DNA from: Escherichia coli 042
GTDB lineage: Bacteria; Pseudomonadota; Gammaproteobacteria; Enterobacterales; Enterobacteriaceae
Assembly (NCBI RefSeq): GCF_000027125.1
Contig: NC_017626.1
Length of the DNA: 64,000 nt
Strand: one strand, 5' to 3'
This document shows positions 31,686 through 52,503 of this stretch, piece by piece; within the stretch, counting starts at the first letter, position 1; each line of letters opens with the position of its first letter. The translations under genes and the position numbers were made by a program. The notes beneath the pieces are model-generated. The model made no database searches and had not been told where the DNA came from. It saw only the letters and a program-made list of their open reading frames with translations.

Positions 31686-32789
31686 TCAGGAGCCGATATA
31701 TTCTGGTTTCATATCTGTCAGTGTCGTTTTATACGCCTCATATAATTCACCCAGATGTGGCCGGGCAGCATTCAGCGTATTTTCCAGAGCAGTAAATTTT
31801 TGTTCTGCTTCTGGATCACCTGATGAAGGAAGGTCATTTATCATCTTCTCGATACTGGCAATAGCATTGAGACGGTGATGACGCCGAACCACTTTTCCTT
31901 TAAGCTCGGCAAAGAATTCGCCGATCTGGTTTTTCTGATCCTCTATCTCTTGGCGTAATGCAGTGGTTTCCTCAGTCGTGGCCGCGCTTTCGACACGCTG
32001 CCGGAATTCATCAATCCACGCTTCGTCAATACGCTGTTCGATGGTTTCTGTTCGCTGCTCGCTTACCTCGCTATAATTCTGTACCGGCACAGGATTGATG
32101 ATTTTTTCCTGTGGCTCTTCCAGTTCGTCCGGAGTATACACGCCCAGGATGACGTCAGGACAATAAAGGCGAGCCCAGTATTTCAACGCCAGATAGGCGA
32201 GCTGTTGTTTCGGGTTTGAGGTCCATAAAGGAGAATTACGCGTAATCACGCTGGAAAGAAACACCGGTTCTCCCCAGGTAATCTCACTTTCACCGCGAAG
32301 AACTGCACCAACTCGAACTGATAGACCATACTCATCTTCACTGGTCCAACATGGGATCGTTTCTTTTTTCTCATAGATTCCGCCTCCTTTGGCCGTTTTC
32401 TTAACGGTCTCCACTCGGGTGCGAGAGCATTTCTCCCAGTCTCCCTCGTACTTGTAATGGAAGCGGCCTACAATTGCACTTGAGCTAGAGATCACAGCGT
32501 TAACCAGTTGTGCTTCATAACCCAGAACTCCGTTTACCAGGTGTGTTTTCTGAGCCACAGCGTAGGGGTTCATGCCCCATTGCATGGCTTGCATGATGAT
32601 TGCCATGCAGTCGGCAGGATTTCCGCGAAGGTGATCGGGAACTGTGACGGTGGCCTGTGACATCAACCTGGCTACTGCCTGAAGTTGCGTCAACGCCTGA
32701 ACGTTAAAAATAGTGTTACTGGCAGAAATGGTATTTGGTGTCTGCTCTGTCGTGATGATATTGGTATTTTGCATGGTCAGGTTCTCCAT
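31686..32789 (-). CDS. Phage single-strand annealing recombinase in the recT position, divergent from K-12 RecT
   Basis: 367 aa; sits directly downstream of recE-like gene with ATGA overlap; sequence not matching remembered K-12 RecT. Confidence 0.55.
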   Translation of the reverse strand: MENLTMQNTNIITTEQTPNTISASNTIFNVQALTQLQAVARLMSQATVTVPDHLRGNPADCMAIIMQAMQWGMNPYAVAQKTHLVNGVLGYEAQLVNAVISSSSAIVGRFHYKYEGDWEKCSRTRVETVKKTAKGGGIYEKKETIPCWTSEDEYGLSVRVGAVLRGESEITWGEPVFLSSVITRNSPLWTSNPKQQLAYLALKYWARLYCPDVILGVYTPDELEEPQEKIINPVPVQNYSEVSEQRTETIEQRIDEAWIDEFRQRVESAATTEETTALRQEIEDQKNQIGEFFAELKGKVVRRHHRLNAIASIEKMINDLPSSGDPEAEQKFTALENTLNAARPHLGELYEAYKTTLTDMKPEYIGS

Positions 32790-35700
32790 TAAGCCAGATG
32801 CAGTGCTTCAAGACGACGAAGATCAAAGTCGTTTAATTCGTCGGTATAACTTTCGGTAATCGGTGCTGGCCAGTTGTTTGTCTCCAGGGCTTCGTTTATC
32901 TGGCGTAGCGTCCGGCGATATTCCTGTCGACCAAGTTCCAGGAGTTCCTGCGAGGCTTCCACGACAGCCACCCAGTGATAGCCAGCATCTTTGTTGACGA
33001 AGATCCAGAAAAATTTTTCCAGGTTTGCCACATCGCAATACATTGCGGCGCTGAGGTGATAATCACGCTCAATAATTTCACGGTGCAGGCGATCTTTAAG
33101 TCGTTCCTGCCGCACATAACCGAGGCTGACTGACTTCACGTCGGCGCAAATGCTTTCGTATGGCAGCCGGATTTCGATATCAGGACGGACCCTGATTTCC
33201 AGCCCGGTTTCTTCATCAAACCCGAAATAGCTGATTTCAGATTTGCGATCCGGGTGGTTGAGTAGCCTTGCCGCATCAGTATTGTTTTGCAGTGCCGCGT
33301 GAATATTTTTTGCCTGTTCATACATATCCGGACTGATAAACGTTTTCCCGGCGTTTTCTTCTTGCTGGCGTTTTTGCCAGTCCTCCAGTGTCACCAGTTC
33401 CGGGCGAATTTTCCGTGCGATTTCGGTTAATTGCTCTTTCGTGCCACTGATGTTGTAAGGCAAAGATTTAGCACGTTCTTTTTTTGCCAGTTCTGGGTCT
33501 ACAGTTTCAATTTGATCCAGAAGTTGCTCCCGTGCTCCACTGGTTTTCAACAGAGGAGGGAGGCTTGCGTTGTATTCTTTAATACAGGCTTTCATTGCTG
33601 ATGCTGTGTGTTTTTCCCCCTCAGGGATACGCCGAAATTCCACCGGAAGCGAACCGTAAAGGATGCCTGTTTCTTCGGCCCCAGCACTTACAGACAGTGG
33701 CTGTATAAGAGTGCTGTTGTAGCTTTCGATCCACTCTTTCATCTGCTCTGGTGTCATCAGTGCTGGCAGACTGGCATTGTGTTTTTTAATGATGGCGATC
33801 AGTTCGTTAGAAGTAGTAACCACATATTCAGGAACCGGTACCGGAATGGCATATTCATCAGCGAATTTATCCGTTTCCAGAACATAGCTGTGAATGATCC
33901 TCCCACGCAGCAGTGCATCACTTTCCTCATTCGGAATAGTTCCGGCAATGTGCCGCCCGTGGTAATACATCAGGCTGATACGGGCATCCTTCAGCATCGT
34001 GCTGCTTATTCCGTTGGCGGAGTGATAAACCTCGTTCGGGAGGTTTTCATAGCGGCCTGGCTCGAAATATGACGGCCACATGATTTCAGTTGCTACAGGA
34101 GCTGACGCTTCACCAGTTTGATCACTGCAATCACGATGCGGATCGCTGCCAGCATTCTCATTGTGCGGATGTTCAGCGCCTTCCATTTCCACCGGATCTT
34201 TTTCCTTAGCTTCAACCTGATTCTCTTCATCGAATGTTTCCTGGTATGTTGCGTCGCCCATCACCGCGCCACAGTCAGGGCAGTTACTGCCGCCGGTCTG
34301 ACCGCAGGCGGCGCAGACTTTTTCCGGTTCCTGTTGCGCTTCTGGTTCATTTTGTCGCGAATTTTGGCCGTTTTGTTCCGATTTTCGGTCGTTCTGTTCC
34401 GTTTTTGGCTGATGCTGGTACACAGAATCGCGGGTCTGGATCCCCTTAACCCATTTCGGATCATTCGGGTCGCTAATCCCTTCAACAAATTCTCCGCGAT
34501 AGGCAGCCAGTAATTTGTCTGCATCAACAGAATTTACCTGTGACTGAGCATCCAGCGGCTGCGTGTCCTGATGATGTTCAGTTGCATCCGGTTCCACTGT
34601 TTCAGCCGTTGCCTGTTCATCTGCCATTGCGCCAGATGGTTGCGGTTTTTCTTCATCATTCTGTTTTCCCTCCTCTGTTACACGCTGCGGCATCGGGGCA
34701 GAGGAGCGACCGCAGGCAATATCCACGATTTCCGGATCAGGGTTGGCATGATCGGTTTCAGTCAGTACTTTGTTCAGATATTCTGTGACGTGCGCGGGGA
34801 TGACCTCGATCCCAATTGGTGCTTCTTTCACGGACGCAACCACGATGGCGCGAGAATAATCCAGCCCGCCAGGCATGGTGATGAATTTGTCGCGGAAAAC
34901 AGAAAAGGGCGGTTTATTTTCAGCGATAATTTCCTCAATGCGTTTAGCGTGTGCCGGATGAAGGTTATAGATGTCCACGTCCATTGAACGGGCCAGTACG
35001 CCAGTGGCTACGTCGCGCGCCAGTGACGTAAGATCGTGGACGAAACCTTCGCCGCGATCGGTGAGGTTCCCGCCGCCAGCATTAGCACCGGAAGCCGTGC
35101 GAGTGATGCGTGAAACACGATTACCCTTCATCCACTCTTTTGTCAGCAGTCCTCGATCGGTGTAGTCAGCGTTCAGGTATACTTCGAAAAAAGCAGTTAA
35201 CAGTCCCAAGTCTGAATTACCAGGATTAGGGAAAACTTTGTCAGTGTCACGAACCAGTTTGTGGAGATCGCGAATTTCCAGCGGGTCGAGCAGGCTGGTT
35301 TTGTGGGAAACAGCCAGGGCAGTAACAGCCGGTAGTTCTTCAGCCCGTGCAATGTGTAATGCCTGGAGTTCGCCGCGTGAAACGTGCGTTACCGGTTTTT
35401 CGCTGCCGTGTTGAGCAAGCCAACGAATGGGCAGTTCCTGGCCAGAAATTGGGAGTAGCATATTCTCCTCAATCTCAGTCATGTCTTCGCCGTTGACGTT
35501 GGTATTGCCTTGATAGTGAGCGTTGTCTGGTGCTGCTCCCGGTTTTAGTTCCCATGTCATGGAGTCTTTGCTGAGTTGATAGCGTTCACTCCAGGTAAAA
35601 TCGATCTCACCTTCAGCGGGCAGGTCATTAACGACAGGAAAATTCGTGGCAACAGCTTTAAAATAGCTGCTCAGTTTTTTACCTGACTTAACGATCTGGT

Positions 35701-35812
35701 AGTCCAGAGTGGCACAGGTCGATTCAAAATCGTCACTTGCCCACAGGACGACGTCAGGTTCACCGGATGATTTTTTCGCTTTCCGTAACAGGAAGAGTGG
35801 TTTTGTGCTCAT
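32789..35812 (-). CDS. recE: RecE-like exonuclease VIII: N-terminal region like K-12 RecE, C-terminal nuclease domain divergent
   Basis: 1007 aa; N-terminus [26 protein letters not shown]... matches remembered RecE; C-terminal third differs. Confidence 0.7.
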
Positions 35813-40977: not shown

Positions 40978-41739
40978 ATGGAAACCGTTTTTGATGCACT
41001 GAAAGCAATGGGAAAAGCCACGTCGGTAGAACTGGCTGCGCGACTTGATATCAGTCGTGAAGAAGTGCTGAACGAGCTGTGGGAACTTAAAAAGGCTGGC
41101 TTCGTTGATAAAAGCGTATACACCTGGCGTGTGGCTGATAACAACGTTCAGCAGGAACAGCCAGAGCAGGCAGAACTGCCGGAAGAAACCACCACGGCAA
41201 CAGTAGCGAAAATCTCAGAGTGCGATTTAACCGCGACGATTGAACAACGTGGCCCACAAACGGCGGATGAACTGGCTACGTTTTTCGGCACCACATCACG
41301 CAAAGTGGCTTCAACGCTGGCAATGGCAATCAGCAAAGGCCGTCTGATTCGCGTTAATCAGAACGGTAAATTTCGTTACTGCATGCCGGGCGATGATTTA
41401 CCAGCAGAGCCGAAAGCTGCATCGGTAACGGAAACTGATGGTAAAGCCTTTCCTCAACCAGCAGGTGTTGCGTTACCGGGACAGGAAGCTGCAACACAGG
41501 AAGATATTAAAACAGAAACTGTGGCGGACATTGTGCAGTCGTTGCCATCGTTTACCGAAACGCGAGCGGATGACCTCGTTCTGCCATCGCTGCATATGGC
41601 AAACCGCGAACTGCGTCGGGCGAAAAATCATGTCCAGAAGTGGGAACGTGTCTGCGCCGCGCTGCGGGAGCTGAACAAGCACCGGGATATTGTTCGACAG
41701 ATTACTGATTCTTCTCGCTGTGTTGCATCGGAAAAGTGA
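40978..41739 (+). CDS. Phage protein YdaW-like, probable winged-helix DNA-binding
   Basis: ATG 40978 with GGAGGA RBS; 253 aa; two WH-like segments. Confidence 0.55.
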
Positions 41740-41754
41740 TTGCCGGAGGCGCTT

Positions 41755-42171
41755 ATGGCAAAAGTATTTACACAAGAAGAGCGGGAAAAAATCAAGGGAC
41801 AGGTTGTTGAGCTAGTACGCCGGAGTGGGCGCGAGACGTTACGGCAACTGGAAGCCAAGACAGGTGCGACAAGATATCTGATGAGCGTTCTCGCCAGAGA
41901 GCTGGTTGCCAGTGGCGATGTATACAACTCTGGCTACGGGTTATTCCCGTCTGAACAGGCTCGTAAGGACTGGCAAAATGCCCGCAAAAAACTATCTAGG
42001 GCAAAGGTGAAGAAACCATCTGTGGTTGATCCGGACCTTATCTGGTCATTACCTGACGGAGAAATACGTCGTTATGACAGGCACCAAAACATAATTTGCT
42101 GTGAGTGCCGGAAGAGCGAAGTTATGCAGCGCATACTGGCATTTTATCAGAGAAATTTTCGTTATTTATAG
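41755..42171 (+). CDS. Hypothetical phage protein
   Basis: ATG 41755 preceded by GGAGG; 138 aa; no recognised motif. Confidence 0.45.
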   Translation: MAKVFTQEEREKIKGQVVELVRRSGRETLRQLEAKTGATRYLMSVLARELVASGDVYNSGYGLFPSEQARKDWQNARKKLSRAKVKKPSVVDPDLIWSLPDGEIRRYDRHQNIICCECRKSEVMQRILAFYQRNFRYL

Positions 42172-42334
42172 ACGTTACTCGATTAAAGAGCATTAGTTCA
42201 GATGTGAATTGACATTTTCACGGCACAGGATTGAGCTAGCGTGGTTGTCTGCTTTGTGTCAAAAGCAGATATTACCAGATTTAGACATCTATTCCCGATA
42301 GCCCTGCTCTGATGCTACACTCTGTGCTATTTTC

Positions 42335-43021
42335 ATGACCCCAATAAAAATATTTATGACTATTGCTGATTTCAAACGGCCTAAATTGGAGCTCCCAAAC
42401 GGGGCAAACAAACTACTACTGCACTCTTGCTGTGCTCCATGTTCCGGTGAAGTGATGGAGGCGCTTCAGGCCTCGGGAATCGACTATACCATCTTTTTCT
42501 ACAACCCGAACATTCATCCTCAGAAAGAGTATTTAATTCGTAAGGATGAGAATATTCGCTTTGCTGAACAACACGGCGTGCCATTTATTGATGCTGATTA
42601 CGACACAGACAACTGGTTTGAACGTGCCAAAGGAATGGAATGGGAGCCCGAGAGGGGGATCCGTTGTACCATGTGTTTTGACATGCGTTTTGAGCGGACA
42701 GCGCTGTACGCTGCTGAAAATGGTTTCAGTGTGATCAGCAGTTCACTGGGCATTTCACGCTGGAAAAATATGCAGCAGGTTAACGACTGTGGGCGGCGAG
42801 CCGTCGCGCATTATCCGGGCATGGTGTACTGGGATTATAACTGGCGCAAGCAGGGCGGCTCGTCCCGCATGATTGAAATCAGCAAGCGCGAAAAATTCTA
42901 TCAGCAGGAATATTGTGGCTGTGTGTATTCTCTGCGCGATACCAATCTACACCGCAAATCTCAGGGACGCCCTCTTATCAAAATTGGTCAACTCCACTAC
43001 GGTAAAGAAGAGAAGGAGTGA
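42335..43021 (+). CDS. DUF208 / epoxyqueuosine reductase QueH-like protein (putative Fe-S enzyme)
   Basis: 228 aa with Cys motifs [14 protein letters not shown] and EYCGCVYS, as remembered for the QueH family. Confidence 0.55.
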
Positions 43022-43258
43022 TTTTATGGAGCACCTTTCTTATTGATTTCATATTGGCGAGGTAGCGGGAGTTAAGTAAAATTGCTGCGGGTGCTTGAGG
43101 CTATCTGCCTCAGGCATGAACACCAAAAGGCAGATAGAGAAAAGCCCCAGTTAACATTACGCGTCCTGCAAGACGCTTAACATTAATCTGAGGCTCAATC
43201 TATGCTGAACACATGTAGGTTAGCCTCTTACGTGCCGAAAGGCAAGGAGAAGCAGGCT

Positions 43259-43414
43259 ATGAAGCAGCAAAAGGCGATGTTAATCGCCCTGATCGTCATC
43301 TGTTTAACCGTCATAGTGACGGCACTGGTAACGAGGAAAGACCTCTGCGAGGTACGAATCCGAACCGGGCAGACGGAGGTCGCTGTCTTCACAGCTTACG
43401 AACCTGAGGAGTAA
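43259..43414 (+). CDS. hokD: Hok-family membrane toxin (type I toxin)
   Basis: 51 aa MKQQKAMLIALIVICLTVIVTALVTRKDLCEVRIRTGQTEVAVFTAYEPEE matches remembered HokD/RelF; in-frame upstream extension from 43202. Confidence 0.8.
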   Translation: MKQQKAMLIALIVICLTVIVTALVTRKDLCEVRIRTGQTEVAVFTAYEPEE

Positions 43415-43880
43415 GAGACCGGGCGAGGGAGAAATCCCTCGCCACCTCTGATGTATTATGCATCCTCAACGCACCCACACTTAACCAGTTTTGGCGAGTT
43501 TATTTTATCTGTAAATATTTTTATAAAAATAATGCCCACGCACAGCATAAAACAAAAAGTATTACAGATAAAAAAGGAGCGTAATGTGCAGATTTGTTGT
43601 TTTCCATATTTACTCACCTTAATATGATTGATCTTGATAGGATTGTTATTTCAGTGGTTTTCAAATGAGATATTATGGTGATCTGGTAGATTTGCATAAC
43701 ATTAAAATTTAATTTGTTTAACCGCTTTTAATAATAAGCGTTGTTTTTATCCCGGCAATCTGTTGTTTGGTTTTTATTCCATTAAGGTGGGGACTTTACA
43801 CTGGAGCCAGTTTATTTATACTTCATACGTCAGCCTGAACAACTGGCATCTGCTGCACTGCGCCATCGAGAGATTGAGAA

Positions 43881-44480
43881 ATGGCGCATATACAACTGGT
43901 CAAACAAACTTCTTCTGGTTTACTTCTCCCGGCGACGCCGGAGAGTTGCGATTTTCTGCATCAAATCAAAATAGGTGAGTGGATACACGCAGACTTTAAG
44001 CGTGTGCGTAACTACGCATTCCACAAGCGTTTTTTCAAACTCCTGCAACTGGGATTCGATTACTGGACTCCGGTCGGTGGGGCGATCACACCTCGCGAAC
44101 GAGAAATGGTGTTCGGCTTCGTTGATTACCTGTGTGAATCAGTAGGCAGGGAACATACGCCAGCTCTGAGTGATGCCGCGGAACAATATCTGAATACCGT
44201 TGCGACACGCAGAACCCGGGATATGGCATTGCTCAAATCATTTGACGCTTTCCGCGAGTGGGTAACCATTCAGGCCGGATTTTACACCGAGCATTTTTAT
44301 CCTGATGGTAGTCGTGGGCGTCGGGCGAAATCCATCGCGTTTGCGAATATGGACGAAACCGAGTTTCAGCAGGTTTATAAATCTGTACTGAATGTGCTGT
44401 GGAACTGGATTCTGTTCCGTAAATTTTCCTCTCCGGAACAAGTCGAAAATGTGGCCGCGCAGCTACTGGAGTTTGCGTAA
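43881..44480 (+). CDS. Hypothetical nin-region phage protein
   Basis: 199 aa, immediately upstream of YbcO-like gene with stop/start overlap. Confidence 0.5.
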   Translation: MAHIQLVKQTSSGLLLPATPESCDFLHQIKIGEWIHADFKRVRNYAFHKRFFKLLQLGFDYWTPVGGAITPREREMVFGFVDYLCESVGREHTPALSDAAEQYLNTVATRRTRDMALLKSFDAFREWVTIQAGFYTEHFYPDGSRGRRAKSIAFANMDETEFQQVYKSVLNVLWNWILFRKFSSPEQVENVAAQLLEFA

Positions 44481-44770
44481 TGGTGGATTTACGTAAAGCG
44501 GCGCGGGGCCAGATGTGCCAGGTCAGAATCCCTGGCTACTGCAATCACAATCCCGAAACTTCTGTGCTGGCGCATTACAGGTTGGCAGGGACGTGCGGAA
44601 CAGCGACAAAACCACACGATATGCAGGCAGCGATTGCCTGTAACTCATGCCACGATTTAATCGACGGGCGGGTAAAAACCAGCGATTACACCAAAGAAGA
44701 ATTACGCCTGATGCATGCAGAAGGTGTTTTTCGCACGCAAGAAATCTGGAGAAAGGAAGGTTATTTATGA
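44480..44770 (+). CDS. YbcO-like protein (DUF1364, Cys-rich putative nuclease)
   Basis: 96 aa MVDLRKAARGQMCQVRIPGYCNHNPETSVLAHYRLAGTCGT...IACNSCHDLIDGR, close to remembered DLP12 YbcO. Confidence 0.75.
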   Translation: MVDLRKAARGQMCQVRIPGYCNHNPETSVLAHYRLAGTCGTATKPHDMQAAIACNSCHDLIDGRVKTSDYTKEELRLMHAEGVFRTQEIWRKEGYL

Positions 44771-45303
44771 TTTACCCAACAAATACAGGCAAAAGCGGGG
44801 AACACCTTCGTCTCACCACGCTGGAAAGTGTCTGGATTCAGGGAAAACTGCGCATGTGGGGGCGCTGGTCGTATATTGGCGGCGGTAAGACGGGGAATAT
44901 GTTTAACCAGTTGCTGGCGTCAAAAAAATTGACGAAAACAGCCATCAATGAAGCCCTGCGCAGAATGAAAAAAGCGGGAATAGAGAAAGCTGAGCTGGAA
45001 GCGTTTTTGCGAGAGATGATCAACGGCAAGCAAAAGAGCTGGCTGGCGCATTGTACTGATGCAGAGGCACTAAAAATTGATAGTGTTATAGGTGAAGTTC
45101 TGGCGGATCATCCAGGACTACTAAATGTCCTGAGTCAGCGTTATGTGGGGCGAGGGATGAGTAAGAGAAGGATGGCCGAGTTATTAAACGAACAGTACCC
45201 AGAGTGGGCGTTGATTACATGCCGACGTCGTGTTGATCAGTGGTTGCGTGTTGCTGAGTTCATTTTGTATTCACCTATGAGAGAAGCGTTCGATTATGCT
45301 TAA
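44767..45303 (+). CDS. Putative late-gene antiterminator Q
   Basis: 178 aa; last nin-region gene, directly upstream of terminator hairpin, tRNAs and lysis cassette; family assignment from memory only. Confidence 0.5.
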   Translation: MIYPTNTGKSGEHLRLTTLESVWIQGKLRMWGRWSYIGGGKTGNMFNQLLASKKLTKTAINEALRRMKKAGIEKAELEAFLREMINGKQKSWLAHCTDAEALKIDSVIGEVLADHPGLLNVLSQRYVGRGMSKRRMAELLNEQYPEWALITCRRRVDQWLRVAEFILYSPMREAFDYA

Positions 45304-45397
45304 AAAATCATTGCAAAATGAGCCACAAACTGCTTCAATTTCGGTACGCTTCGCATAGCTGTATCGCGAGGCAAATTAAGCGCATGAACTTTAATAC

Positions 45398-45425
45398 AAC
45401 CCGCCATTGAGCGGGTTTTGTTGTT
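45398..45425 (+). terminator. Rho-independent terminator downstream of Q (candidate tR')
   Basis: ACCCGC-CATTGA-GCGGGT hairpin followed by TTTGTTGTTT. Confidence 0.45.
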
Positions 45426-45665
45426 TCTGTGGCGTGATATCAGAAACGACATTTAATAATCGCCTTCAAAATAAATTTGTTTATACATTGTCATGTATAT
45501 TTTAAGTGAAAGTGAATTATTCACATAAAATAAAAACACATAAATAAATTTACATAACTTGACGCAAAGTGTTGTTGCGATTGGAATATTAAATCGTATC
45601 ATCGAAAACGGTTCTGAGGGGGAACTCTTCTTTGCTCGGTGATATCGCTCCCCTGAAGAACCAAT

Positions 45666-45741
<76 letters not shown>

Positions 45742-45744
45742 TAT

Positions 45745-45819
<75 letters not shown>

Positions 45820-46182
45820 GCATTTGAAACAAGCCTTATTGTATTGCGGCACTGGCGTATTTTTTTATTACGTGGGAGCAGGTTGTTTTGAAAAAGCATT
45901 CTGTTCTCTGGCTATGATTTGAGGCCGGGTGTAGCCTCAGTGCTGATTTTTTACGGCAGCAGAATGGTGCATTATCGGTGGAGATTTTGTATTTCCTGGC
46001 AGGGTCGGTGATGCATCATTCTGGTGTTGTAAAAGCACCGCAGAGGCGTTCCTCAGGGCGAGGGTGGTTTAAAGAGTCGGTTTAGCGGGAAACCACAGTA
46101 TCCATACGGCACGGAATACTTCGGGAGGCACCCGACGCCTCGGTTTTATAACAATTAAATAATTCATCCCTTAATTGACCAA

Positions 46183-46207
46183 CCGCCGTATCAGGCGGTT
46201 TTTTTTA
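46183..46207 (+). terminator. Rho-independent terminator in the tRNA-holin spacer
   Basis: CCGCC-GTATCA-GGCGG hairpin followed by T9. Confidence 0.5.
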
Positions 46208-46595
46208 TTCCTTTCTCAGGACAAAAAAATACACGAGCATCCAGGAATACTCGTGGGACAACGTCCTTTGGATAGCAATTTGCGAGAGGGTGAAAAGTAG
46301 CGCGGTCGTCGGATTAAGACCGCGGGACAAAGTCCATGAAGAAGAATAAGTATCGGTCTCCTTCCGGAGACGAGTTGATATTACTAAGCTTTAAAAATGG
46401 TTTAAATCCTCAGATCAACCTTAATTTCAGATAAGGTTTATTTCATTTTCTCCGCGTCACATCCGACGCACATCACATCAGATAACACCACACAAAAGGC
46501 ATCTGCGGGTGTCTTTGACGGGGTGTTTTTTACGGGCCGCTGGTGGCCATTTTTTGTTTCCATTACACAGCGCCCGCATCTGCGAGGTGGGGGTT

Positions 46596-46811
46596 ATGAA
46601 ATCCATGGATAAGTTAACAACGGGTGTCGCCTATGGCACCTCCGCAGGCAGTGCTGGCTACTGGTTTTTACAGCTGCTCGATAAAGTCACGCCCTCACAG
46701 TGGGCAGCAATAGGTGTGCTGGGTAGCTTGGTATTTGGCCTGCTGACGTACCTGACAAACCTTTATTTCAAGATTAAAGAAGATAAGCGCAAGGCTGCGA
46801 GAGGTGAATAA
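46596..46811 (+). CDS. S: Class II pinholin (phage 21 S21-like) with dual-start motif
   Basis: 71 aa [71 protein letters not shown]; Met1/Met4 dual start; two TM domains. Confidence 0.85.
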
Positions 46812-47308
46812 TGCCTCCATCATTACGAAAAGCCGTTGCTGCTGCTATTGGTGGCGGAGCAATTGCTATAGCATCAGTGTTAATCACTGGCCCAAGTGGT
46901 AACGATGGTCTGGAAGGTGTCAGCTACATACCATACAAAGATATTGTTGGTGTATGGACTGTATGTCACGGGCATACAGGAAAAGACATCATGCTCGGTA
47001 AAACGTATACCAAAGCAGAATGCAAAGCCCTCCTGAATAAAGACCTTGCCACGGTCGCCAGACAAATTAACCCGTACATAAAAGTTGATATACCGGAAAC
47101 AACGCGCGGCGCTCTTTACTCGTTCGTTTACAACGTGGGCGCTGGCAATTTCAGAACATCGACGCTTCTTCGCAAAATAAACCAGGGCGATATCAAAGGC
47201 GCATGTGATCAGCTACGTCGCTGGACATATGCTGGCGGTAAGCAATGGAAAGGTCTCATGACTCGTCGTGAGATTGAGCGTGAAATCTGTTTGTGGGGTC
47301 AGCAATGA
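46811..47308 (+). CDS. R: SAR (signal-anchor-release) endolysin, lysozyme family (R21-like)
   Basis: 165 aa; Gly/Ala-rich N-terminal SAR domain ([20 protein letters not shown]) then lysozyme-like domain; TAATG overlap with holin. Confidence 0.85.
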
Positions 47309-47769
47309 ACAGAGTAACCGCGATTATCTCCGCTCTGGTTATCTGCATCATCGTCTGCCTGTCATGGGCTGTTAATCATTACCGTGATAATGCCATTACC
47401 TACAAAGCGCAACGCGATAATGTGAAGGAAAAACTCAACCAGGCGACCGCAATCATTACTGACATGCAGATACGCCAGCGTGATGTTGCTGCACTCGATG
47501 CAAAATACCTGAAGGAGTTAGCTGATGCGAAAGCTGAAAATGATGCTCTGCGTGATGATGTTGCCGCTGGTCGTCGTCGGTTGCACATCAAAGCAGTCTG
47601 TCCGTCCGTGCGTGAAGCCACCATCGCCTCCAGCGTGGATAATGCAGTCTCCCCCAGACTGGCAGACACCGCTGAACGGGATTATTTCACCCTCCGGGAA
47701 CGACTGGTAATGATGCAGGCCCAACTTGAAGGTGCTCAGCAATACATAACCGAACAGTGTTTAAAGTAA
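47305..47769 (+). CDS. Rz: Spanin inner-membrane subunit (Rz-like)
   Basis: 154 aa from [21 protein letters not shown]..., N-terminal TM plus coiled-coil; ATGA overlap with endolysin. Confidence 0.75.
47525..47710 (+). CDS. Rz1: Spanin outer-membrane lipoprotein subunit (Rz1-like), embedded in Rz in another frame
   Basis: 61 aa, signal peptide with lipobox VVGC, proline-rich mature region. Confidence 0.65.
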
Positions 47770-47906
47770 AATCTTAACTACAATATGATTCATTTTGATG
47801 ATTGTTTCATAAGGAACAGTGAAGTAAGATCTAAGATGAGTTAAATTTTATACAGTATAATCATAATGTTGCAGCAAGGTGGTTATAATTGAAAGAATAT
47901 TTAGAT

Positions 47907-49364
47907 ATGAATACATCTCATGTAAGAGTTGTTACTCATATGTGTGGGTTCCTGGTTTGGCTCTATAGTCTTTCAATGTTGCCACCAATGGTTGTAGCAT
48001 TGTTTTATAAAGAAAAAAGCCTGTTCGTTTTCTTTATAACTTTCGTTATATTTTTTTGCATTGGTGGCGGAGCGTGGTATACAACTAAGAAATCTGGTAT
48101 TCAATTACGTACCCGTGATGGGTTTATTATAATTGTAATGTTTTGGATTTTGTTTTCTGTTATTAGTGCATTCCCTTTATGGATTGACTCAGAACTTAAT
48201 TTAACGTTTATTGATGCTCTATTTGAAGGGGTTTCTGGAATAACAACAACAGGAGCAACTGTAATTGATGATGTTAGTTCATTACCTCGGGCATATTTGT
48301 ACTATCGGTCACAGTTAAATTTTATAGGTGGCTTAGGAGTTATTGTTCTGGCGGTTGCTGTATTGCCATTATTGGGTATTGGTGGTGCAAAGCTTTATCA
48401 GTCAGAAATGCCAGGGCCATTTAAGGATGACAAACTTACTCCCCGCCTGGCCGATACGTCACGGACACTTTGGATAACTTATTCTTTATTAGGTATTGCT
48501 TGTATTGTCTGTTATAGACTTGCAGGAATGCCTTTGTTTGATGCTATTTGTCACGGGATATCCACAGTTTCGCTTGGTGGTTTCTCAACTCATAGCGAGA
48601 GTATCGGATATTTTAATAACTATTTGGTTGAGCTGGTGGCTGGTTCTTTTTCCCTGCTATCGGCTTTCAACTTCACCCTTTGGTATATTGTTATTAGCAG
48701 GAAAACGTTAAAACCTTTAATCAGAGATATTGAACTTCGTTTCTTTCTGTTAATAGCCTTAGGGGTGATCATTGTTACCTCTTTCCAGGTCTGGCATATA
48801 GGTATGTATGACTTGCCTGGAAGTTTTATTCATTCGTTTTTTCTTGCCAGCTCCATGCTCACTGATAATGGTTTAGCTACGCAGGATTACGCAAACTGGC
48901 CCACGCACACGATAGTGTTTTTGCTGTTGTCAAGTTTCTTTGGGGGATGTATAGGTTCAACTTGTGGTGGAATTAAGTCACTTCGATTTCTTATACTTTT
49001 CAAACAAAGCAAACACGAGATAAACCAGCTTTCTCATCCCAGAGCGTTGTTGAGTGTAAATGTAGGAGGGAAGATAGTTACAGATCGTGTAATGAGGTCT
49101 GTATGGAGTTTCTTTTTTCTTTATACTCTCTTCACGGTGTTTTTTATACTGGTGTTAAATGGTATGGGATATGATTTTCTTACATCATTTGCAACAGTGG
49201 CTGCATGTATTAATAATATGGGATTAGGTTTTGGGGCTACTGCATCGTCATTCGGAGTGCTTAATGACATTGCAAAATATTTAATGTGCATAGCTATGAT
49301 TCTTGGTCGCCTTGAAATTTATCCTGTTATTATATTGTTTTCAGGTTTTTTTTGGCGCTCCTAA
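47907..49364 (+). CDS. trkG: Potassium uptake protein TrkG (TrkH family), prophage moron
   Basis: 485 aa from MNTSHVRVVTHMCGFLVWLYSL...; visibly AT-rich relative to flanks. Confidence 0.9.
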   Translation: MNTSHVRVVTHMCGFLVWLYSLSMLPPMVVALFYKEKSLFVFFITFVIFFCIGGGAWYTTKKSGIQLRTRDGFIIIVMFWILFSVISAFPLWIDSELNLTFIDALFEGVSGITTTGATVIDDVSSLPRAYLYYRSQLNFIGGLGVIVLAVAVLPLLGIGGAKLYQSEMPGPFKDDKLTPRLADTSRTLWITYSLLGIACIVCYRLAGMPLFDAICHGISTVSLGGFSTHSESIGYFNNYLVELVAGSFSLLSAFNFTLWYIVISRKTLKPLIRDIELRFFLLIALGVIIVTSFQVWHIGMYDLPGSFIHSFFLASSMLTDNGLATQDYANWPTHTIVFLLLSSFFGGCIGSTCGGIKSLRFLILFKQSKHEINQLSHPRALLSVNVGGKIVTDRVMRSVWSFFFLYTLFTVFFILVLNGMGYDFLTSFATVAACINNMGLGFGATASSFGVLNDIAKYLMCIAMILGRLEIYPVIILFSGFFWRS

Positions 49365-49501: not shown

Positions 49502-50293
49502 ATGAGCGAGAAATTGAAGATCGTCTATCGCCCTTTACAAGAACTGTCTCCGTATGCACACAACGCCAGGACACACAGCCCTGAGCAGGTGGCACAACTG
49601 GTAGAAAGCATTAAGCAATTCGGCTGGACTAATCCGGTGCTGATTGATGAAAAGGGCGAAATTATTGCTGGTCACGGTCGCGTTATGGCGGCTGAAGTGC
49701 TCAAAATGGATTCCATTCCGGTCATCGTTCTGTCTGGTTTGATGGATGATCAGAAAAAGGCGTACCGCCTGGCAGATAATCGCCTGCCGCTGAACGCTGG
49801 CTGGGATGAAGAACTGTTGCGGATGGAGCTGTCGGAGCTAATCAATGCTGATTTTGATATCTCCCTGACAGGATTCAGCCCGACAGAAATTGATGAACTG
49901 TTGACGGATGTTTTGCCAGGTACAGGAAATGAGGAGGAGCCGTACACGACGAAAATTGATACGCCTGTTTATGAGCCGTCGGGCGATAAACCGGACATCA
50001 GTGAGCTGTACGACGATACGAAAACTCAGGAGCTGATCAGCCGGATACGTTCGGCGTCCCTTGAGCCCGATATCGAAAAATTCCTCCTGTGCGCGGCAGA
50101 ACGCCACACGGTGTTTAATTTCAGCAGAATTGCGGACTATTACGCTCACGCCCCCGCTGAAATTCAGTGTTTTTTCGAGGAGTCGGCGCTGGTGATCATT
50201 GATTATCAGCAGGCTATTGAAAATGGATTTGTCCGGATGACGCAGCGCATGGTGGAGATCATGCATGGTGGTGAGGAGGAGGAATATGCGTGA
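49502..50293 (+). CDS. ParB-like nuclease domain protein (apparently full-length counterpart of the K-12 ynaK remnant)
   Basis: 263 aa; N-terminal ParB/Srx-like domain (LSPYAHNARTHSPEQV...GHGRVMAA). Confidence 0.65.
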   Translation: MSEKLKIVYRPLQELSPYAHNARTHSPEQVAQLVESIKQFGWTNPVLIDEKGEIIAGHGRVMAAEVLKMDSIPVIVLSGLMDDQKKAYRLADNRLPLNAGWDEELLRMELSELINADFDISLTGFSPTEIDELLTDVLPGTGNEEEPYTTKIDTPVYEPSGDKPDISELYDDTKTQELISRIRSASLEPDIEKFLLCAAERHTVFNFSRIADYYAHAPAEIQCFFEESALVIIDYQQAIENGFVRMTQRMVEIMHGGEEEEYA

Positions 50294-51218
50294 TGATTTT
50301 TGCGCCTTTATTCTGACTCACGGGCGACCGGACAAAGTTCTGACTTACCGGACGTTGCGTCGTGCTGGCTATACCGGGAAAATTTTTATCGTTGTTGATG
50401 ATGAAGATAAGACACGGCATCAGTACATGGCTGAATTTGGTGAACAGGTGCTGGTGTTTTCCAAAGCCGATATCGCCAGTCGTTTTGACGAAGCCGATAA
50501 TTTCGGTGACCGCCGCTCAATTTTTTACGCCCGTAATGCCTGTTTCGACCTGGCAAAACTGGTCGGGTGTAAATACTTCATTCAGCTCGATGATGATTAT
50601 CACGAGTTCCAGTTTCGGGTGGATCGCAACTATGACCAGGCCTATTTTCCGATAAGGAAACTGGATGCGATCCTTTCTGAAATGCTGGCGTACTACGAAT
50701 CAATACCTGCTCTTTCCATCGCTATGTCGCAGGGCGGGGATTTTCTTGGTGACAATGGCGGCCATGCTTCGTGGGTGAAACGCAAGGCAATGAACAGCTT
50801 TATCTGTTCGGTTGATCGACCGTTCTCATTCATGGGGCGCATTAACGAGGATGTGAATACGTACACGAATCTCGGTCGCTGTGGTGAATTGTTTATGACG
50901 ATCGGTGCTGTCCAGTTAGGGCAGAAACAGACGCAGAAAAACAGCGGCGGAATGACCGAGCTGTATCTGGATTCCGGAACCTACGTTAAAAGTTTTTACT
51001 CCGTCATGTATGCGCCGTCGTGCGTAAAAATCTCACTGATGGGTGCCAGCCATAAACGCATTCACCATCAGGTCACCTGGAACAACGCTGCAGTAAAAAT
51101 CCTTCACGAAAAATACAGGAAGAAGACACCCTGCATATCAATAGGGGTGACAAATGATTCCATATTCGAAAGTCGAGTCTCTGGCAGCGTGCCGGATGAC
51201 TGCACAACAAATCGCTGA
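50286..51218 (+). CDS. Uncharacterised phage protein with DxD-type motif (possible GT-A-fold nucleotide-sugar transferase)
   Basis: ATG 50286 after GAGGAGG RBS; 310 aa; FIQLDDDYHE and N-terminal AFILTHGRPDKV resemble GT-A signatures; assignment tentative. Confidence 0.45.
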   Translation: MRDDFCAFILTHGRPDKVLTYRTLRRAGYTGKIFIVVDDEDKTRHQYMAEFGEQVLVFSKADIASRFDEADNFGDRRSIFYARNACFDLAKLVGCKYFIQLDDDYHEFQFRVDRNYDQAYFPIRKLDAILSEMLAYYESIPALSIAMSQGGDFLGDNGGHASWVKRKAMNSFICSVDRPFSFMGRINEDVNTYTNLGRCGELFMTIGAVQLGQKQTQKNSGGMTELYLDSGTYVKSFYSVMYAPSCVKISLMGASHKRIHHQVTWNNAAVKILHEKYRKKTPCISIGVTNDSIFESRVSGSVPDDCTTNR

Positions 51219-51405
51219 CGTTCTGGATGTTGATCTGAACCGACTGAAAGAAAATCGGGAAGCAATGACAGATTTTTATGCGGCCATCCGTAAGGGCAGA
51301 GCGAAAGGTGAAGCCGAGTTACGAGCGGCATTGTTTAAGCTTGCCAGAAAAGGGGATGCCTTTGCTCTGCGCGAACTACTCAGGGTGGATAAAAATCAGG
51401 ACTAA
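51154..51405 (+). CDS. Small putative DNA-binding protein preceding terminase (start uncertain)
   Basis: 83-aa ORF overlapping 3' end of previous gene; HTH-like MTAQQIADVLDVDLNRLK. Confidence 0.4.
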   Translation: MIPYSKVESLAACRMTAQQIADVLDVDLNRLKENREAMTDFYAAIRKGRAKGEAELRAALFKLARKGDAFALRELLRVDKNQD

Positions 51406-51408
51406 CTG

Positions 51409-52503
51409 ATGAGCAGACCGGACTGGGGGGCGTTGCAGCAGGAGTATATTGCTGAATACACCCGCTCCGGTATATCTCCGGTGGCATGGTGTGAAGCAAG
51501 GGGACTGAATTACGCAACAGCCCGTCGTTACATCAAAAAACCTCCGAAAAATGCGCAGACAGAAATGCGCAAAACTGCGCAAAAAAGTGCGCAGAAAAAA
51601 TCTGCGCAGACTGCACAAAAGCGGAACGAAAAATCTCAGGAAAAAAAGCCAGTATTCGATGCGGGCCTGAATGAGGGCGACGCGGAGGAATTTTCGTTCT
51701 GTCCCGATGAATTCGGCATTTCTGACCAGCAGGCTAAGTTTGCGATGCTTGTTGCTCAGGGGAAAAAGCCGACAGAGGCGTACCGACTAGCCGGTTATGA
51801 GGGGCAAGGTGCGACAGCTAACAGCAACGCCAGTCGTATGCTTAGAAATGCCAGGGTTTTTCGCGCTATCAGCTACTTCCGCAATCAGTACCAGAAACGC
51901 TATACCGCAGACCTGGATTTACTGGTGAGTCAGTTGATGGCCATTGTCCTGGCCGACCCCAATCAGCTTGCACAATTTCGCCGTGTTAACTGCCGTTATT
52001 GCTGGGGCGAGAATCATCTCTACCAGTGGCGCGATATAGCAGAATTCGACAAGGCAGCGGCGCAGGCTTCCAGAGATGGCAAACCCGAACCGGAATATGG
52101 AGGCCTCGGCTTTGTTGATAACGCCATACCCAATCCGGACTGCCCGAAGTGCTGCGGTGAGGGAACGGGACAGCTTTATATGGCTGATACCACTCTGCTT
52201 GATGGGGATGCGCGGCAATTATATGCAGGGGCAAAACTCGGAAAATTCGGCGTTGAGATCCTGCTGGAGGATAAGGCTGCCGCCCGGCGTGAATTGTTGC
52301 GTTTGCTTTCTGCTGGCGGGGCTTTATGTGCAGATAAGCGGCTACAGGAACTGGAAATTGAACGACGCAGAATGGAAAACCAGAAGCTGCGCAAAGAGAT
52401 CGAAACGGTGGAAGATAATGAACATCCCCAGCCTGTGGCGATCAATATTAATGTGGTTGATGCCAGAGTAAGGAGTGATGAAGATGATCTCTCCGACGCT
52501 TAA
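51409..52503 (+). CDS. Terminase small subunit (putative)
   Basis: 364 aa, N-terminal HTH (GISPVAWCEARGLNYATARRYIKK), directly upstream of terminase large subunit. Confidence 0.6.
   Translation: MSRPDWGALQQEYIAEYTRSGISPVAWCEARGLNYATARRYIKKPPKNAQTEMRKTAQKSAQKKSAQTAQKRNEKSQEKKPVFDAGLNEGDAEEFSFCPDEFGISDQQAKFAMLVAQGKKPTEAYRLAGYEGQGATANSNASRMLRNARVFRAISYFRNQYQKRYTADLDLLVSQLMAIVLADPNQLAQFRRVNCRYCWGENHLYQWRDIAEFDKAAAQASRDGKPEPEYGGLGFVDNAIPNPDCPKCCGEGTGQLYMADTTLLDGDARQLYAGAKLGKFGVEILLEDKAAARRELLRLLSAGGALCADKRLQELEIERRRMENQKLRKEIETVEDNEHPQPVAININVVDARVRSDEDDLSDA

Follow-up and report, generated by a model that had tools for sequence, protein, structure and literature searches.

A predicted phage-21-type lysis cassette of pinholin, SAR endolysin, and nested spanins in a Rac-type prophage of Escherichia coli 042

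Does a Rac-type prophage of Escherichia coli still carry a complete set of lysis genes, and by which route would these genes open the cell? The question is raised by a locus of E. coli 042 (RefSeq assembly GCF_000027125.1, contig NC_017626.1), from which we analyzed a stretch of 64,000 nucleotides (the window, to which all coordinates refer). Four uninterrupted open reading frames (ORFs), S, R, Rz, and Rz1, lie on the + strand within 46596-47769, base for base where the initial annotation of this DNA had placed four intact lysis genes. In translationally coupled overlaps, the R ATG overlaps the S stop codon (TAATG), and the Rz ATG overlaps the R stop codon (ATGA). Chance ORFs are excluded by the Pfam matches of the four proteins (PF04971, PF00959, PF03245, and PF06085), and PHROG lysis families also match the cassette proteins. 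NCBIfam assigned a family to none of S, Rz, Rz1, and the Q-like protein encoded upstream, and R gave only matches far below the cutoff.

The cassette had also been called phage-21-type, with an alignment to the phage 21 proteins proposed as the check. In that alignment, run with the counterparts encoded by the phage 21 genome OL657228.1, all four proteins aligned, with identities of 61/71 (86%) for S, 164/165 (99.4%) for R, 130/154 (84%) for Rz, and 53/61 (87%) for Rz1. In the PDB and curated phage genomes, S and R were matched with at most one residue different. The phage 21 cassette (OL657228.1, 39866-41036; R21 structures 3HDE/3HDF) has the same gene order, the same overlapping start/stop junctions, and the same MKSM dual start, and it likewise combines a class II holin with two transmembrane domains (TMDs), a signal-anchor-release (SAR) endolysin, and an Rz1 gene embedded in the +1 frame. 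On sequence grounds, the locus is a predicted intact pinholin, SAR endolysin, and nested-spanin lysis module in an apparently full-length E. coli prophage of the Rac type. The module is genuine but unremarkable, being already known as a near match to the well-studied genes of phage 21, phage 434, and DLP12.

The prophage is Rac-type by position and by gene content: it lies at ttcA, runs colinear to the Rac prophage of K-12 and the prophages of APEC O1 and K56-43-un, and shares the Rac gene set (intR, xisR, ralR, recET, kilR, sieB, and ydaT-V, through to trkG). All phage ORFs inside the window have the expected length, and the prophage continues past the window end. K-12 Rac, at the same ttcA site with the same flanking genes, lacks window positions 41428-47326, a 5,899-bp deletion that joins ydaW to Rz codon 8 and takes out the Q-like gene, two tRNA genes, S, R, and codons 1-7 of Rz, leaving a 5'-truncated rzpR pseudogene and an intact rzoR. 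The remark that the cassette differs from a degenerate K-12 Rac lysis region was thus accurate, S and R being absent there and rzpR truncated. From 47650 on, across the junction into trkG, the K-12 DNA is 98-99% identical and has the same Rac-type Rz/Rz1 3' end. The cassette shows the K-12 Rac lysis region as it was before the 5.9-kb deletion and fixes the endpoints of that deletion.

The S gene has two potential starts, at 46596 and 46605, and its N-terminus reads MKSMDK (M1-K2-S3-M4). The long form of 71 aa from Met1 (46596..46811, + strand) is a predicted antiholin (anti-pinholin) with the extra Lys2, and the short form of 68 aa from Met4, encoded by the same ORF (46605..46811, + strand), is a predicted class II holin or pinholin; the phage 21 and phage 434 records label the equivalent 68-codon product "holin class II". 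The Met-Lys-Ser-Met signature of a putative holin/antiholin pair, pointed out in the initial annotation, is therefore present as in S21-71/S21-68, a dual-start pair in which the antiholin has one extra N-terminal positive charge (PMC9636201). Just 5' of the dual start, a tandem Shine-Dalgarno-like purine run (AGGTG GGGGT, 46585..46594, + strand) was read from the sequence and may serve both starts; the curated phage 434 record gives separate S71 and S68 ribosome-binding sites at the same offsets (-11..-7 and -6..-2). When the mRNA around both S starts was folded for the window, phage 21, and DLP12, the minimum free energy structures differed, and no shared start-selection hairpin was found.

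S matched PF04971, "Bacteriophage P21 holin S", with 121 bits (cutoff 26, E=2e-35). It shares with S21 the dual start, TMD2, and the charged tail, which is basic at the C-terminus, although the DNA identity to S21 is only 75.5% and W27L changes the aromatic patch of TMD1. The description of S as close to S21 holds at 86% amino acid identity, but its nearest named relatives are the phage 434 S protein/antiholin and K-12 DLP12 EssD, to which it is identical (71/71 aa). TMD1 (residues 8-28) is weakly hydrophobic, with 57% Gly/Ala/Ser/Thr, and stays under the hydrophobicity threshold, while TMD2 (36-58) reaches a maximum Kyte-Doolittle value of 2.1 and carries G40/S44/G48, a GxxxSxxxG motif identical to that of S21. 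A glycine zipper in pinholin TMD2 has been described (PMC9025707). The predicted topology and the dual start place S in the class II holin or pinholin family of phage 21 S. S21-68 makes small (~2 nm, heptameric) pinholes that depolarize the membrane but do not release a soluble endolysin (PMC9636201), and the 86% identity to S21 with a near-identical TMD2 suggests that S would form such pinholes as well.

R (46811..47308, + strand, 165 aa) is a predicted SAR endolysin with the fold of T4 lysozyme, that is, a muramidase, as indicated by its PF00959 match (E=1e-45) and its identity to R21. The match to R21 in PDB 3HDE has E=3e-111, residues 1-97 are identical between the two proteins, and 164/165 residues are also shared with RrrD of K-12 DLP12 (PDB 4ZPU). 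The E35, D44, and T50 residues, which we take to be the catalytic Glu-Asp-Thr triad in the numbering of the R21 literature, are all present. The N-terminus is hydrophobic over residues 4-31, and Gly and Ala make up 55% of residues 8-27, in agreement with the Gly/Ala-rich N-terminal SAR domain proposed earlier. The first Cys does not come before residue 52, and the predicted SAR domain is thus Cys-free, without the disulfide-switch Cys of the P1 Lyz type. Both its catalytic domain and its putative SAR domain make R an R21-type SAR endolysin.

These two proteins also bear on whether the cassette could instead be a canonical lambda-type system, in which a large-hole holin releases a soluble cytoplasmic endolysin. 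Lambda has the same S-R-Rz/Rz1 order and dual-start motif; its lysis genes likewise sit in the late operon, follow the holin/antiholin scheme of a dual start, and have Rz1 embedded in Rz. However, S of lambda is a large-hole holin with three TMDs and its R a soluble transglycosylase, from other families and with another release mechanism (PMC9636201), whereas S of the cassette has only two TMDs and falls in PF04971 rather than the lambda S family. Its R is a PF00959 muramidase with a SAR domain, 99.4% identical to R21, and not the lambda transglycosylase. A lambda-type route, already contradicted by the sequence, has practically no chance of being correct.

Rz and Rz1 fit the pinholin and SAR-endolysin reading as well. 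Rz (47305..47769, + strand, 154 aa) is a predicted i-spanin, the inner-membrane subunit, with matches to PF03245 (E=2e-49) and, over its full length, to phrog_13; it has an N-terminal TMD (residues 1-27) as well as Cys99 and Cys152. Rz1 (47525..47710, + strand, 61 aa) is a predicted o-spanin, the outer-membrane lipoprotein, with a match to PF06085 (E=4e-18) and a V-V-G-C lipobox (17-20) containing Cys20. It lies wholly within Rz, in the +1 frame relative to it, and an AAGGAG Shine-Dalgarno sequence stands 7 nt 5' of its ATG. The earlier observation of an Rz1-like lipoprotein frame with a VVGC lipobox embedded in Rz was therefore correct. Position +2 holds Thr, with no Lol-avoidance Asp, and the mature part of 42 aa contains Cys29 and 9 Pro. 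These features and the nesting of the genes identify Rz/Rz1 as a putative embedded two-component spanin, one of the described classes of spanin gene architecture (PMC9636201). Rz C99/C152, Rz1 C20/C29, and the Pro-rich region match lambda positions, and in lambda Rz the two Cys form homodimer disulfides (PMC5295617). The stretch of five prolines reads PPSPP in Rz1; the altered position, 34, is one at which lambda accepts substitutions (PMC5295617). E150 is kept in Rz, but Rz1 carries N59 and D60 (ending in GNDW) and Rz ends in CLK, and the E150-R59 salt bridge of lambda was not found here. The missing R59 is weak evidence against function because the lambda Rz1 tail past residue 55 is dispensable (PMC5295617). 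The GNDW-type ending is common to K-12 RzoR, to which Rz1 is 93% identical, and the Rz C-terminus is identical to that of the K-12 Rac rzpR remnant; in phage 21, the corresponding ends are CR for Rz and ERG for Rz1. The Rac-specific termini (CLK and GNDW) might conceivably mark a distinct pairing specificity of the predicted spanins, though this is a long shot.

The cassette has a mosaic make-up: S resembles 434/DLP12, R and the 5' end of Rz resemble phage 21, the middle of Rz is close to no comparator, and the 3' end of Rz/Rz1 is specific to Rac. In the Rz segment 47350-47500, identity to every comparator is just 74-81%, and divergence from phage 21 Rz falls at about residues 39-60. DLP12 (essD-rrrD(ybcS)-rzpD-rzoD) and phage 434 (S-R-Rz-Rz1) have the same architecture, with S DNA 96.8% identical, R 164/165, Rz 81%, and Rz1 87% identical, and GTG as the Rz start. 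Upstream, the DNA is unrelated past ~17 bp, with nmpC in their case and a spacer and the tRNAs in the window; downstream, they have bor in place of trkG, as does phage 21.

Upstream of the cassette, a candidate Q-like late antiterminator (DUF1133; 44767..45303, + strand) matched PF06576 with E=7e-103 and PF06530 (Phage_antitermQ) with 28.2 bits (cutoff 26). Its match to the Q21 structures 6P18/6JNX was weak (E~2e-4), and it is only distantly related to Q21; a homolog is called "antitermination protein Q" in the record of vB_EcoS-683R6. A candidate late promoter with weak hexamers (TTGCAA-17 nt-TTCAAT, 4/6 each; 45311-45339, + strand) was read from the sequence, and a terminator-like site search gave a putative tR'-like hairpin with a T-run (45398-45427, + strand). 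The block 45311..45427 containing both is conserved in four other Rac-type loci, and in arrangement it resembles the annotated pR'/terminator of phage 21. Genes for tRNA-Thr(TGT) and tRNA-Gly(TCC) (45666..45819, + strand; ARAGORN, and 73.8 and 65.6 bits with the Rfam tRNA model) separate the Q-like gene from the lysis genes; in phage 21, too, a pair of tRNAs lies between pR' and S, and a terminator between the Q gene and S. An Rfam scan of 44500-48000 (E<=1) gave these two tRNAs only, with nothing credible around the two S starts or in the spacer of 776 bp. A Q21 binding element-like site, ATTGCAAAATGAGCCA (45310), was dropped, as it is not conserved in other Rac-type loci. The 683R6 entry has the same Q-tRNA-S-R-Rz-trkG layout; we rejected it as an isolated Rac-type virion since its paper gives a PHASTER-predicted prophage, and it counts only as another prophage copy.

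Read as the lysis module in the late operon of a lambdoid prophage of the Rac type, the cassette would follow the phage 21 pinholin, SAR-endolysin, and two-component-spanin pathway, a reading to which we assign a probability of roughly 93%. The mechanism of its motifs is taken from the literature (PMC9636201, PMC9025707, bioRxiv 2021.04.20.440580, and PMC5295617). Upon induction, the Q-like antiterminator would enable transcription from the candidate promoter just 3' of its own gene to pass several terminators and the two tRNA genes and reach S-R-Rz/Rz1. Both S starts would be used, giving the 68-aa pinholin and the 71-aa form, which may act as antiholin because its extra Lys would slow TMD1, which is weakly hydrophobic, in leaving the membrane. 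R would be exported by Sec and tethered, inactive, to the inner membrane by its Gly/Ala-rich SAR domain. At a critical pinholin concentration, TMD1 would leave the bilayer, and TMD2 would assemble into many pinholes of the S21 kind (~2 nm, heptameric), collapsing the proton-motive force. This depolarization would free the SAR domain, upon which R would refold as an active muramidase (E35/D44/T50) and degrade the murein. The complex of Rz and Rz1, freed from the murein meshwork, would then fuse the inner and outer membranes and complete lysis. We infer the lysis activity from near-identical characterized proteins, and the expression, timing, and actual lysis by the cassette are predictions of the same analysis.

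Could the frames be open yet never expressed, or no longer functional, in a cryptic prophage? Rac is the textbook cryptic prophage, and close relatives carry inactivating lesions in other genes, since the terminase small subunit gene is interrupted by an internal stop codon in APEC O1, and K56-43-un has frameshifted sieB and tail tube genes; one trkG-linked cassette (H70) is itself split by an IS3 element. Against such a silent relic, the four frames, both starts, the ribosome-binding sites, and all catalytic and structural hallmarks are intact, and all four frames were open in 9/9 sampled trkG-linked loci. Among Rac-type copies, S and R have dN/dS of 0.00-0.10 at dS values of up to 0.36, a pattern that is at odds with neutral decay and indicates strong purifying selection. 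The cloned DLP12 operon gives a lytic phenotype, with an S identical to and an R nearly identical to those of the cassette (PMC7918800). KingRac, a full-size Rac-like prophage comparable in prophage type and ttcA site, is mitomycin-inducible and makes virions, although its induction and lysis are weak (PMC6731689). The cassette marks the window prophage as a candidate inducible prophage, like KingRac. We regard a silent relic as very unlikely.

The closeness to DLP12, with S identical and R one residue off, bears on another reading, in which the host has domesticated the module and retains it, not for phage release, but for cell-wall turnover at a low level, for vesiculation, or for biofilm functions, as proposed for the DLP12 operon. 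Outer-membrane vesicle production, cell-wall maintenance, and stress-regulated transcription have been reported for the DLP12 proteins (PMC7918800). The selection on S and R would fit a host function, as would the wide spread of colinear S-R-Rz-trkG (686/5,426 complete E. coli genomes), but an active phage would show purifying selection equally. The prophage is apparently full-length, with intact packaging, head, and tail genes, and the cassette holds the normal late-operon position behind the Q-like antiterminator and several terminators. Moreover, the loss of S and R from Rac had no obvious cost in K-12, and the Rac-type prophage of strain KK19-02, whose chromosomal flank is 100% identical to that of the window, has a different lysis module; such exchange argues against a fixed host function. 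We therefore consider domestication unlikely as the main role, though it and phage release are not mutually exclusive.

E. coli APEC O1 carries the same cassette DNA, with 100% identity. The window itself is not APEC O1, since only 43881-64000 is 99.7% identical and the remainder ~97%, and no complete RefSeq genome matched the whole prophage (best match, 92% coverage at 97.6% identity). RefSeq already lists the identical cassette, as essD/rrrD/lysis protein, the exact DNA being annotated in APEC O1 and other genomes. The locus has little weight as a discovery, its proteins being identical or nearly so to several of the best-characterized lysis proteins (S21, R21, EssD, RrrD, Rz, and Rz1); its practical value is as a reference point. 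It also illustrates an annotation gap: RefSeq records at such loci usually call Rz or the embedded Rz1, not both.

Downstream, 137 bp 3' of Rz and on the same strand, trkG (47907..49364, +; PF02386 TrkH, E=2e-143) lies between the lysis and packaging genes as a low-GC cargo gene for a K+ transporter (GC 35-41%, vs 46-50% in the flanks), and it is so annotated in APEC O1, K-12, and others. A terminator-like site search found none between Rz and trkG, and trkG therefore probably belongs to the Q-dependent late transcription unit. Both the triggering of the pinholin and the release of the SAR endolysin hinge on the proton-motive force, and late K+ uptake by TrkG might therefore conceivably tune lysis timing or counter premature depolarization in Rac-type phages. 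We put this forward as a long shot; if true, it would explain the colinearity of S-R-Rz-trkG in the 686 genomes.

Four uninterrupted open reading frames, all on the + strand, were found within 46596-47769 of the window, exactly the interval in which the initial annotation, made by a model from the sequence alone, had placed a phage-21-type lysis cassette with four intact genes. The first, S (46596-46811), encodes a 71-aa pinholin/antiholin and has a second in-frame ATG at 46605. It is followed by the SAR endolysin gene R (46811-47308, 165 aa), whose ATG overlaps the S stop (TAATG), and by the i-spanin gene Rz (47305-47769, 154 aa), whose ATG overlaps the R stop (ATGA). The o-spanin gene Rz1 (47525-47710, 61 aa) occupies the +1 frame wholly within Rz and is preceded, 7 nt upstream, by the Shine-Dalgarno AAGGAG. 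Pfam identified S as 'Bacteriophage P21 holin S' (PF04971, E=2e-35), R as a phage lysozyme (PF00959, 1e-45) and the two spanins as Rz (PF03245, 2e-49) and Rz1 (PF06085, 4e-18), and PHROGs gave lysis families for all four. A four-frame pattern with such matches cannot have arisen by chance.

The individual proteins carry the hallmarks that had been noticed on first reading, namely the dual start of the holin (M1-K2-S3-M4), the Gly/Ala-rich signal-anchor-release (SAR) N-terminus of the endolysin and the embedded lipoprotein frame with its VVGC lipobox. In S, the first transmembrane domain (TMD1, residues 8-28) is weakly hydrophobic, with 57% Gly/Ala/Ser/Thr, TMD2 (36-58) is strongly hydrophobic and contains G40/S44/G48, and the C-terminal tail is basic. 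Residues 4-31 of R are hydrophobic and devoid of Cys, which makes it an endolysin of the R21 type and not of the P1 Lyz disulfide type; R also carries E35/D44/T50. Rz has an N-terminal TMD, Cys99 and Cys152, and Rz1 has Cys20 with Thr at +2, Cys29 and a mature peptide of 42 aa with nine prolines; the cysteine positions of both are those forming homodimer disulfides in lambda (PMC5295617). The penta-proline stretch of Rz1 reads PPSPP, and the altered residue, position 34, is the only one reported to tolerate substitution (PMC5295617).

The pinholin/SAR-endolysin/spanin pathway is established for S21/R21 and lambda Rz/Rz1, as is the antiholin role of the extra N-terminal charge (PMC9636201; PMC9025707; bioRxiv 2021.04.20.440580; PMC5295617), and the cloned operon of the K-12 prophage DLP12, with an identical S and an R different by one residue, gives a lytic phenotype (PMC7918800). 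The reading as a phage-21-type lysis cassette is supported, with its function drawn from homology.

Alignment with the annotated S21-71/68, R21, Rz and Rz1 of the curated phage 21 genome OL657228.1, the comparison suggested in the initial annotation, gave 61/71, 164/165, 130/154 and 53/61 identical residues, respectively. R also differs by a single residue from each of two proteins of known crystal structure, R21 (3HDE/3HDF) and the DLP12 lysozyme RrrD (4ZPU), both matched at E~1e-111. The S protein is close to S21, as the initial annotation had it, but closer still to the holin of phage 434 and DLP12 EssD, with both of which it is 100% identical. Segment-wise DNA comparison with relatives showed the cassette to be a mosaic. 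The S gene is 94-100% identical to 434/DLP12 but just 72-75% to phage 21, which in turn matches R and the start of Rz (~100 nt) at 95-100%. From ~47650 on, the DNA is Rac-specific: K-12 Rac and 683R6 (vB_EcoS-683R6, a predicted prophage copy) match it at 99%, and past the Rz stop the identity to phages 21 and 434 falls below 50%. These comparisons refine the assignment, S being of the EssD/434 type rather than strictly of the S21 type and the 3′ end of Rz/Rz1 of the Rac type. Within Rz, identity to phage 21, phage 434, DLP12, 683R6 and K-12 Rac drops to 74-81% over 47350-47500 (codons about 16-65), against 91-100% in the flanks. Here the first periplasmic helix is present as a distinct allele, which strain APEC O1 also carries.

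The Rac-type ends of Rz and Rz1 (47690-47769) are unlike those of lambda and phage 21. One contact of the lambda family, Rz E150 with Rz1 R59, is altered here: Rz keeps E150 and ends in CLK, whereas Rz1 ends in GNDW and lacks R59. Because the lambda Rz1 tail past residue 55 is dispensable (PMC5295617) and K-12 RzoR ends as Rz1 does here, we treat these endings as a Rac-type variant and not as a defect. A reversed or alternative contact, e.g., of Rz K154 with Rz1 D60, is conceivable.

The degeneration of the K-12 Rac lysis region, mentioned in the initial annotation, was confirmed and traced to a deletion. Colinearity between K-12 Rac and the window holds up to 41427 and again from 47325, with a TA dinucleotide shared at the junction. 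K-12 lacks 5,899 bp (41428-47326), with TA microhomology, and has ydaW joined to Rz codon 8; the loss begins inside the DUF1627 gene (ydaW), whose 3′ end it takes, and runs through the Q-like gene, the tRNAs, S and R to the first seven Rz codons. The rest of Rz is readable but startless (the rzpR pseudogene), and rzoR is intact. A second K-12 deletion of ~11.6 kb (about 49756-61363), between ynaK and ydaY, removed packaging and head genes.

Judged by its neighbours, the cassette belongs to a Rac-type prophage located at ttcA, which extends past the window end. The gene order is intR, xisR, ralR, recT/recE, kilR, sieB, immunity region and ydaT-ydaV, followed by DUF1627, DUF977, QueH, DUF1367, YbcO, a Q-like DUF1133 protein, tRNA-Thr and tRNA-Gly, and then by S-R-Rz/Rz1, trkG, a ParB-like gene, terminase, portal, capsid and tail genes. 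No phage ORF inside the window departs in length from its annotated counterparts in relatives, and the terminase small subunit is full-length, where APEC O1 has an internal stop. The cassette DNA is 100% identical to APEC O1 1484198-1485371, annotated as essD, rrrD and 'lysis protein', with no Rz1 feature though the gene is intact. This omission arises because PGAP annotates one frame of the nested pair: in all RefSeq PGAP-annotated loci inspected, either Rz ('lysis protein' or rzpD) or the embedded Rz1 (rzoR or rzoD) was called, never both. Full-size Rac-like prophages have been described (PMC5917428; PMC6731689), among them KingRac at ttcA, which can be induced, causes weak lysis and produces virions (PMC6731689). 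With identical sequence deposited and annotated, its proteins characterised structurally and genetically, and such prophages published, the cassette is already known.

In 686 of the 5,426 complete E. coli genomes, at least 80% of a 1.8-kb query from the S upstream region to the trkG 5′ end was covered at a single site. In nine trkG-linked copies taken from high in the hit lists, a non-random sample, the four frames were always open, one copy having an in-frame 6-codon insertion, and dN/dS against the window was 0.00-0.08 for S and 0.00-0.10 for R (dS up to 0.36). Another trkG-linked copy, in strain H70, is split by an IS3 element. No complete RefSeq E. coli genome matched the window over its full length. 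Strain KK19-02 shares the chromosomal flank of the window at 100% identity. Its Rac-type prophage (NZ_CM144238.1 2850966-2857239), compared with window 44767-49364, has the same Rz/trkG behind a different spacer and another lysis module (class II holin, YdfR and a 177-aa lysozyme). This difference is ordinary lambdoid module exchange, with lysis modules swapped in one prophage lineage.

Upstream, the DUF1133 protein passes the Pfam cutoff for Phage_antitermQ, and its match to the Q21 structures is weak. Eight nt after its stop lies a candidate Q-dependent late promoter (TTGCAA-17 nt-TTCAAT, 45311-45339, +) with weak hexamers (4/6 each), and 3′ of it a tR′-like, terminator-like hairpin that is rich in GC and has a T-run (45398-45427, +); the block 45311-45427 is kept in four other Rac-type loci. 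This promoter/hairpin/tRNA/S order parallels the annotated pR′/terminator/tRNA/S layout of phage 21. The 776-bp spacer between tRNA-Gly and S (45820-46595) has four + strand terminator-like hairpins, no ORF of at least 60 aa and no Rfam match; the whole scanned region has 10 such hairpins against 2.6 expected. Hairpins in such number fit a transcript needing antitermination. The same slot of the LT-IIb phage SerU (KU052038.1), from Q/tRNA to holin, is filled by a duplicated pair of tRNAs and a further copy of the holin.

On the late-gene strand, trkG (47907-49364, +) has Rz on one side and the ParB-like and terminase genes on the other, and the stretch from Rz to trkG shows no terminator-like site; induction would therefore probably lead to its transcription together with the late operon. 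Its GC content is 35-41%, against 46-50% in the flanks. The one speculative thread is that this low-GC gene sits within the presumed late operon, immediately behind lysis genes whose action is set off when the membrane potential is lost.

The recT/recE region (31686-35812) is unlike K-12 recET, with no match over ~2.4 kb, and its RecT-family gene is longer than in K-12, as in strain K56-43-un. A 375-bp stretch (43506-43880) occupies the place of a 1.3-kb hok/doc-toxin segment in APEC O1. Finally, a homolog of the epoxyqueuosine reductase QueH (42335-43021, PF02677, E=2e-65) is encoded in the early region of the prophage, which also has two tRNA genes.
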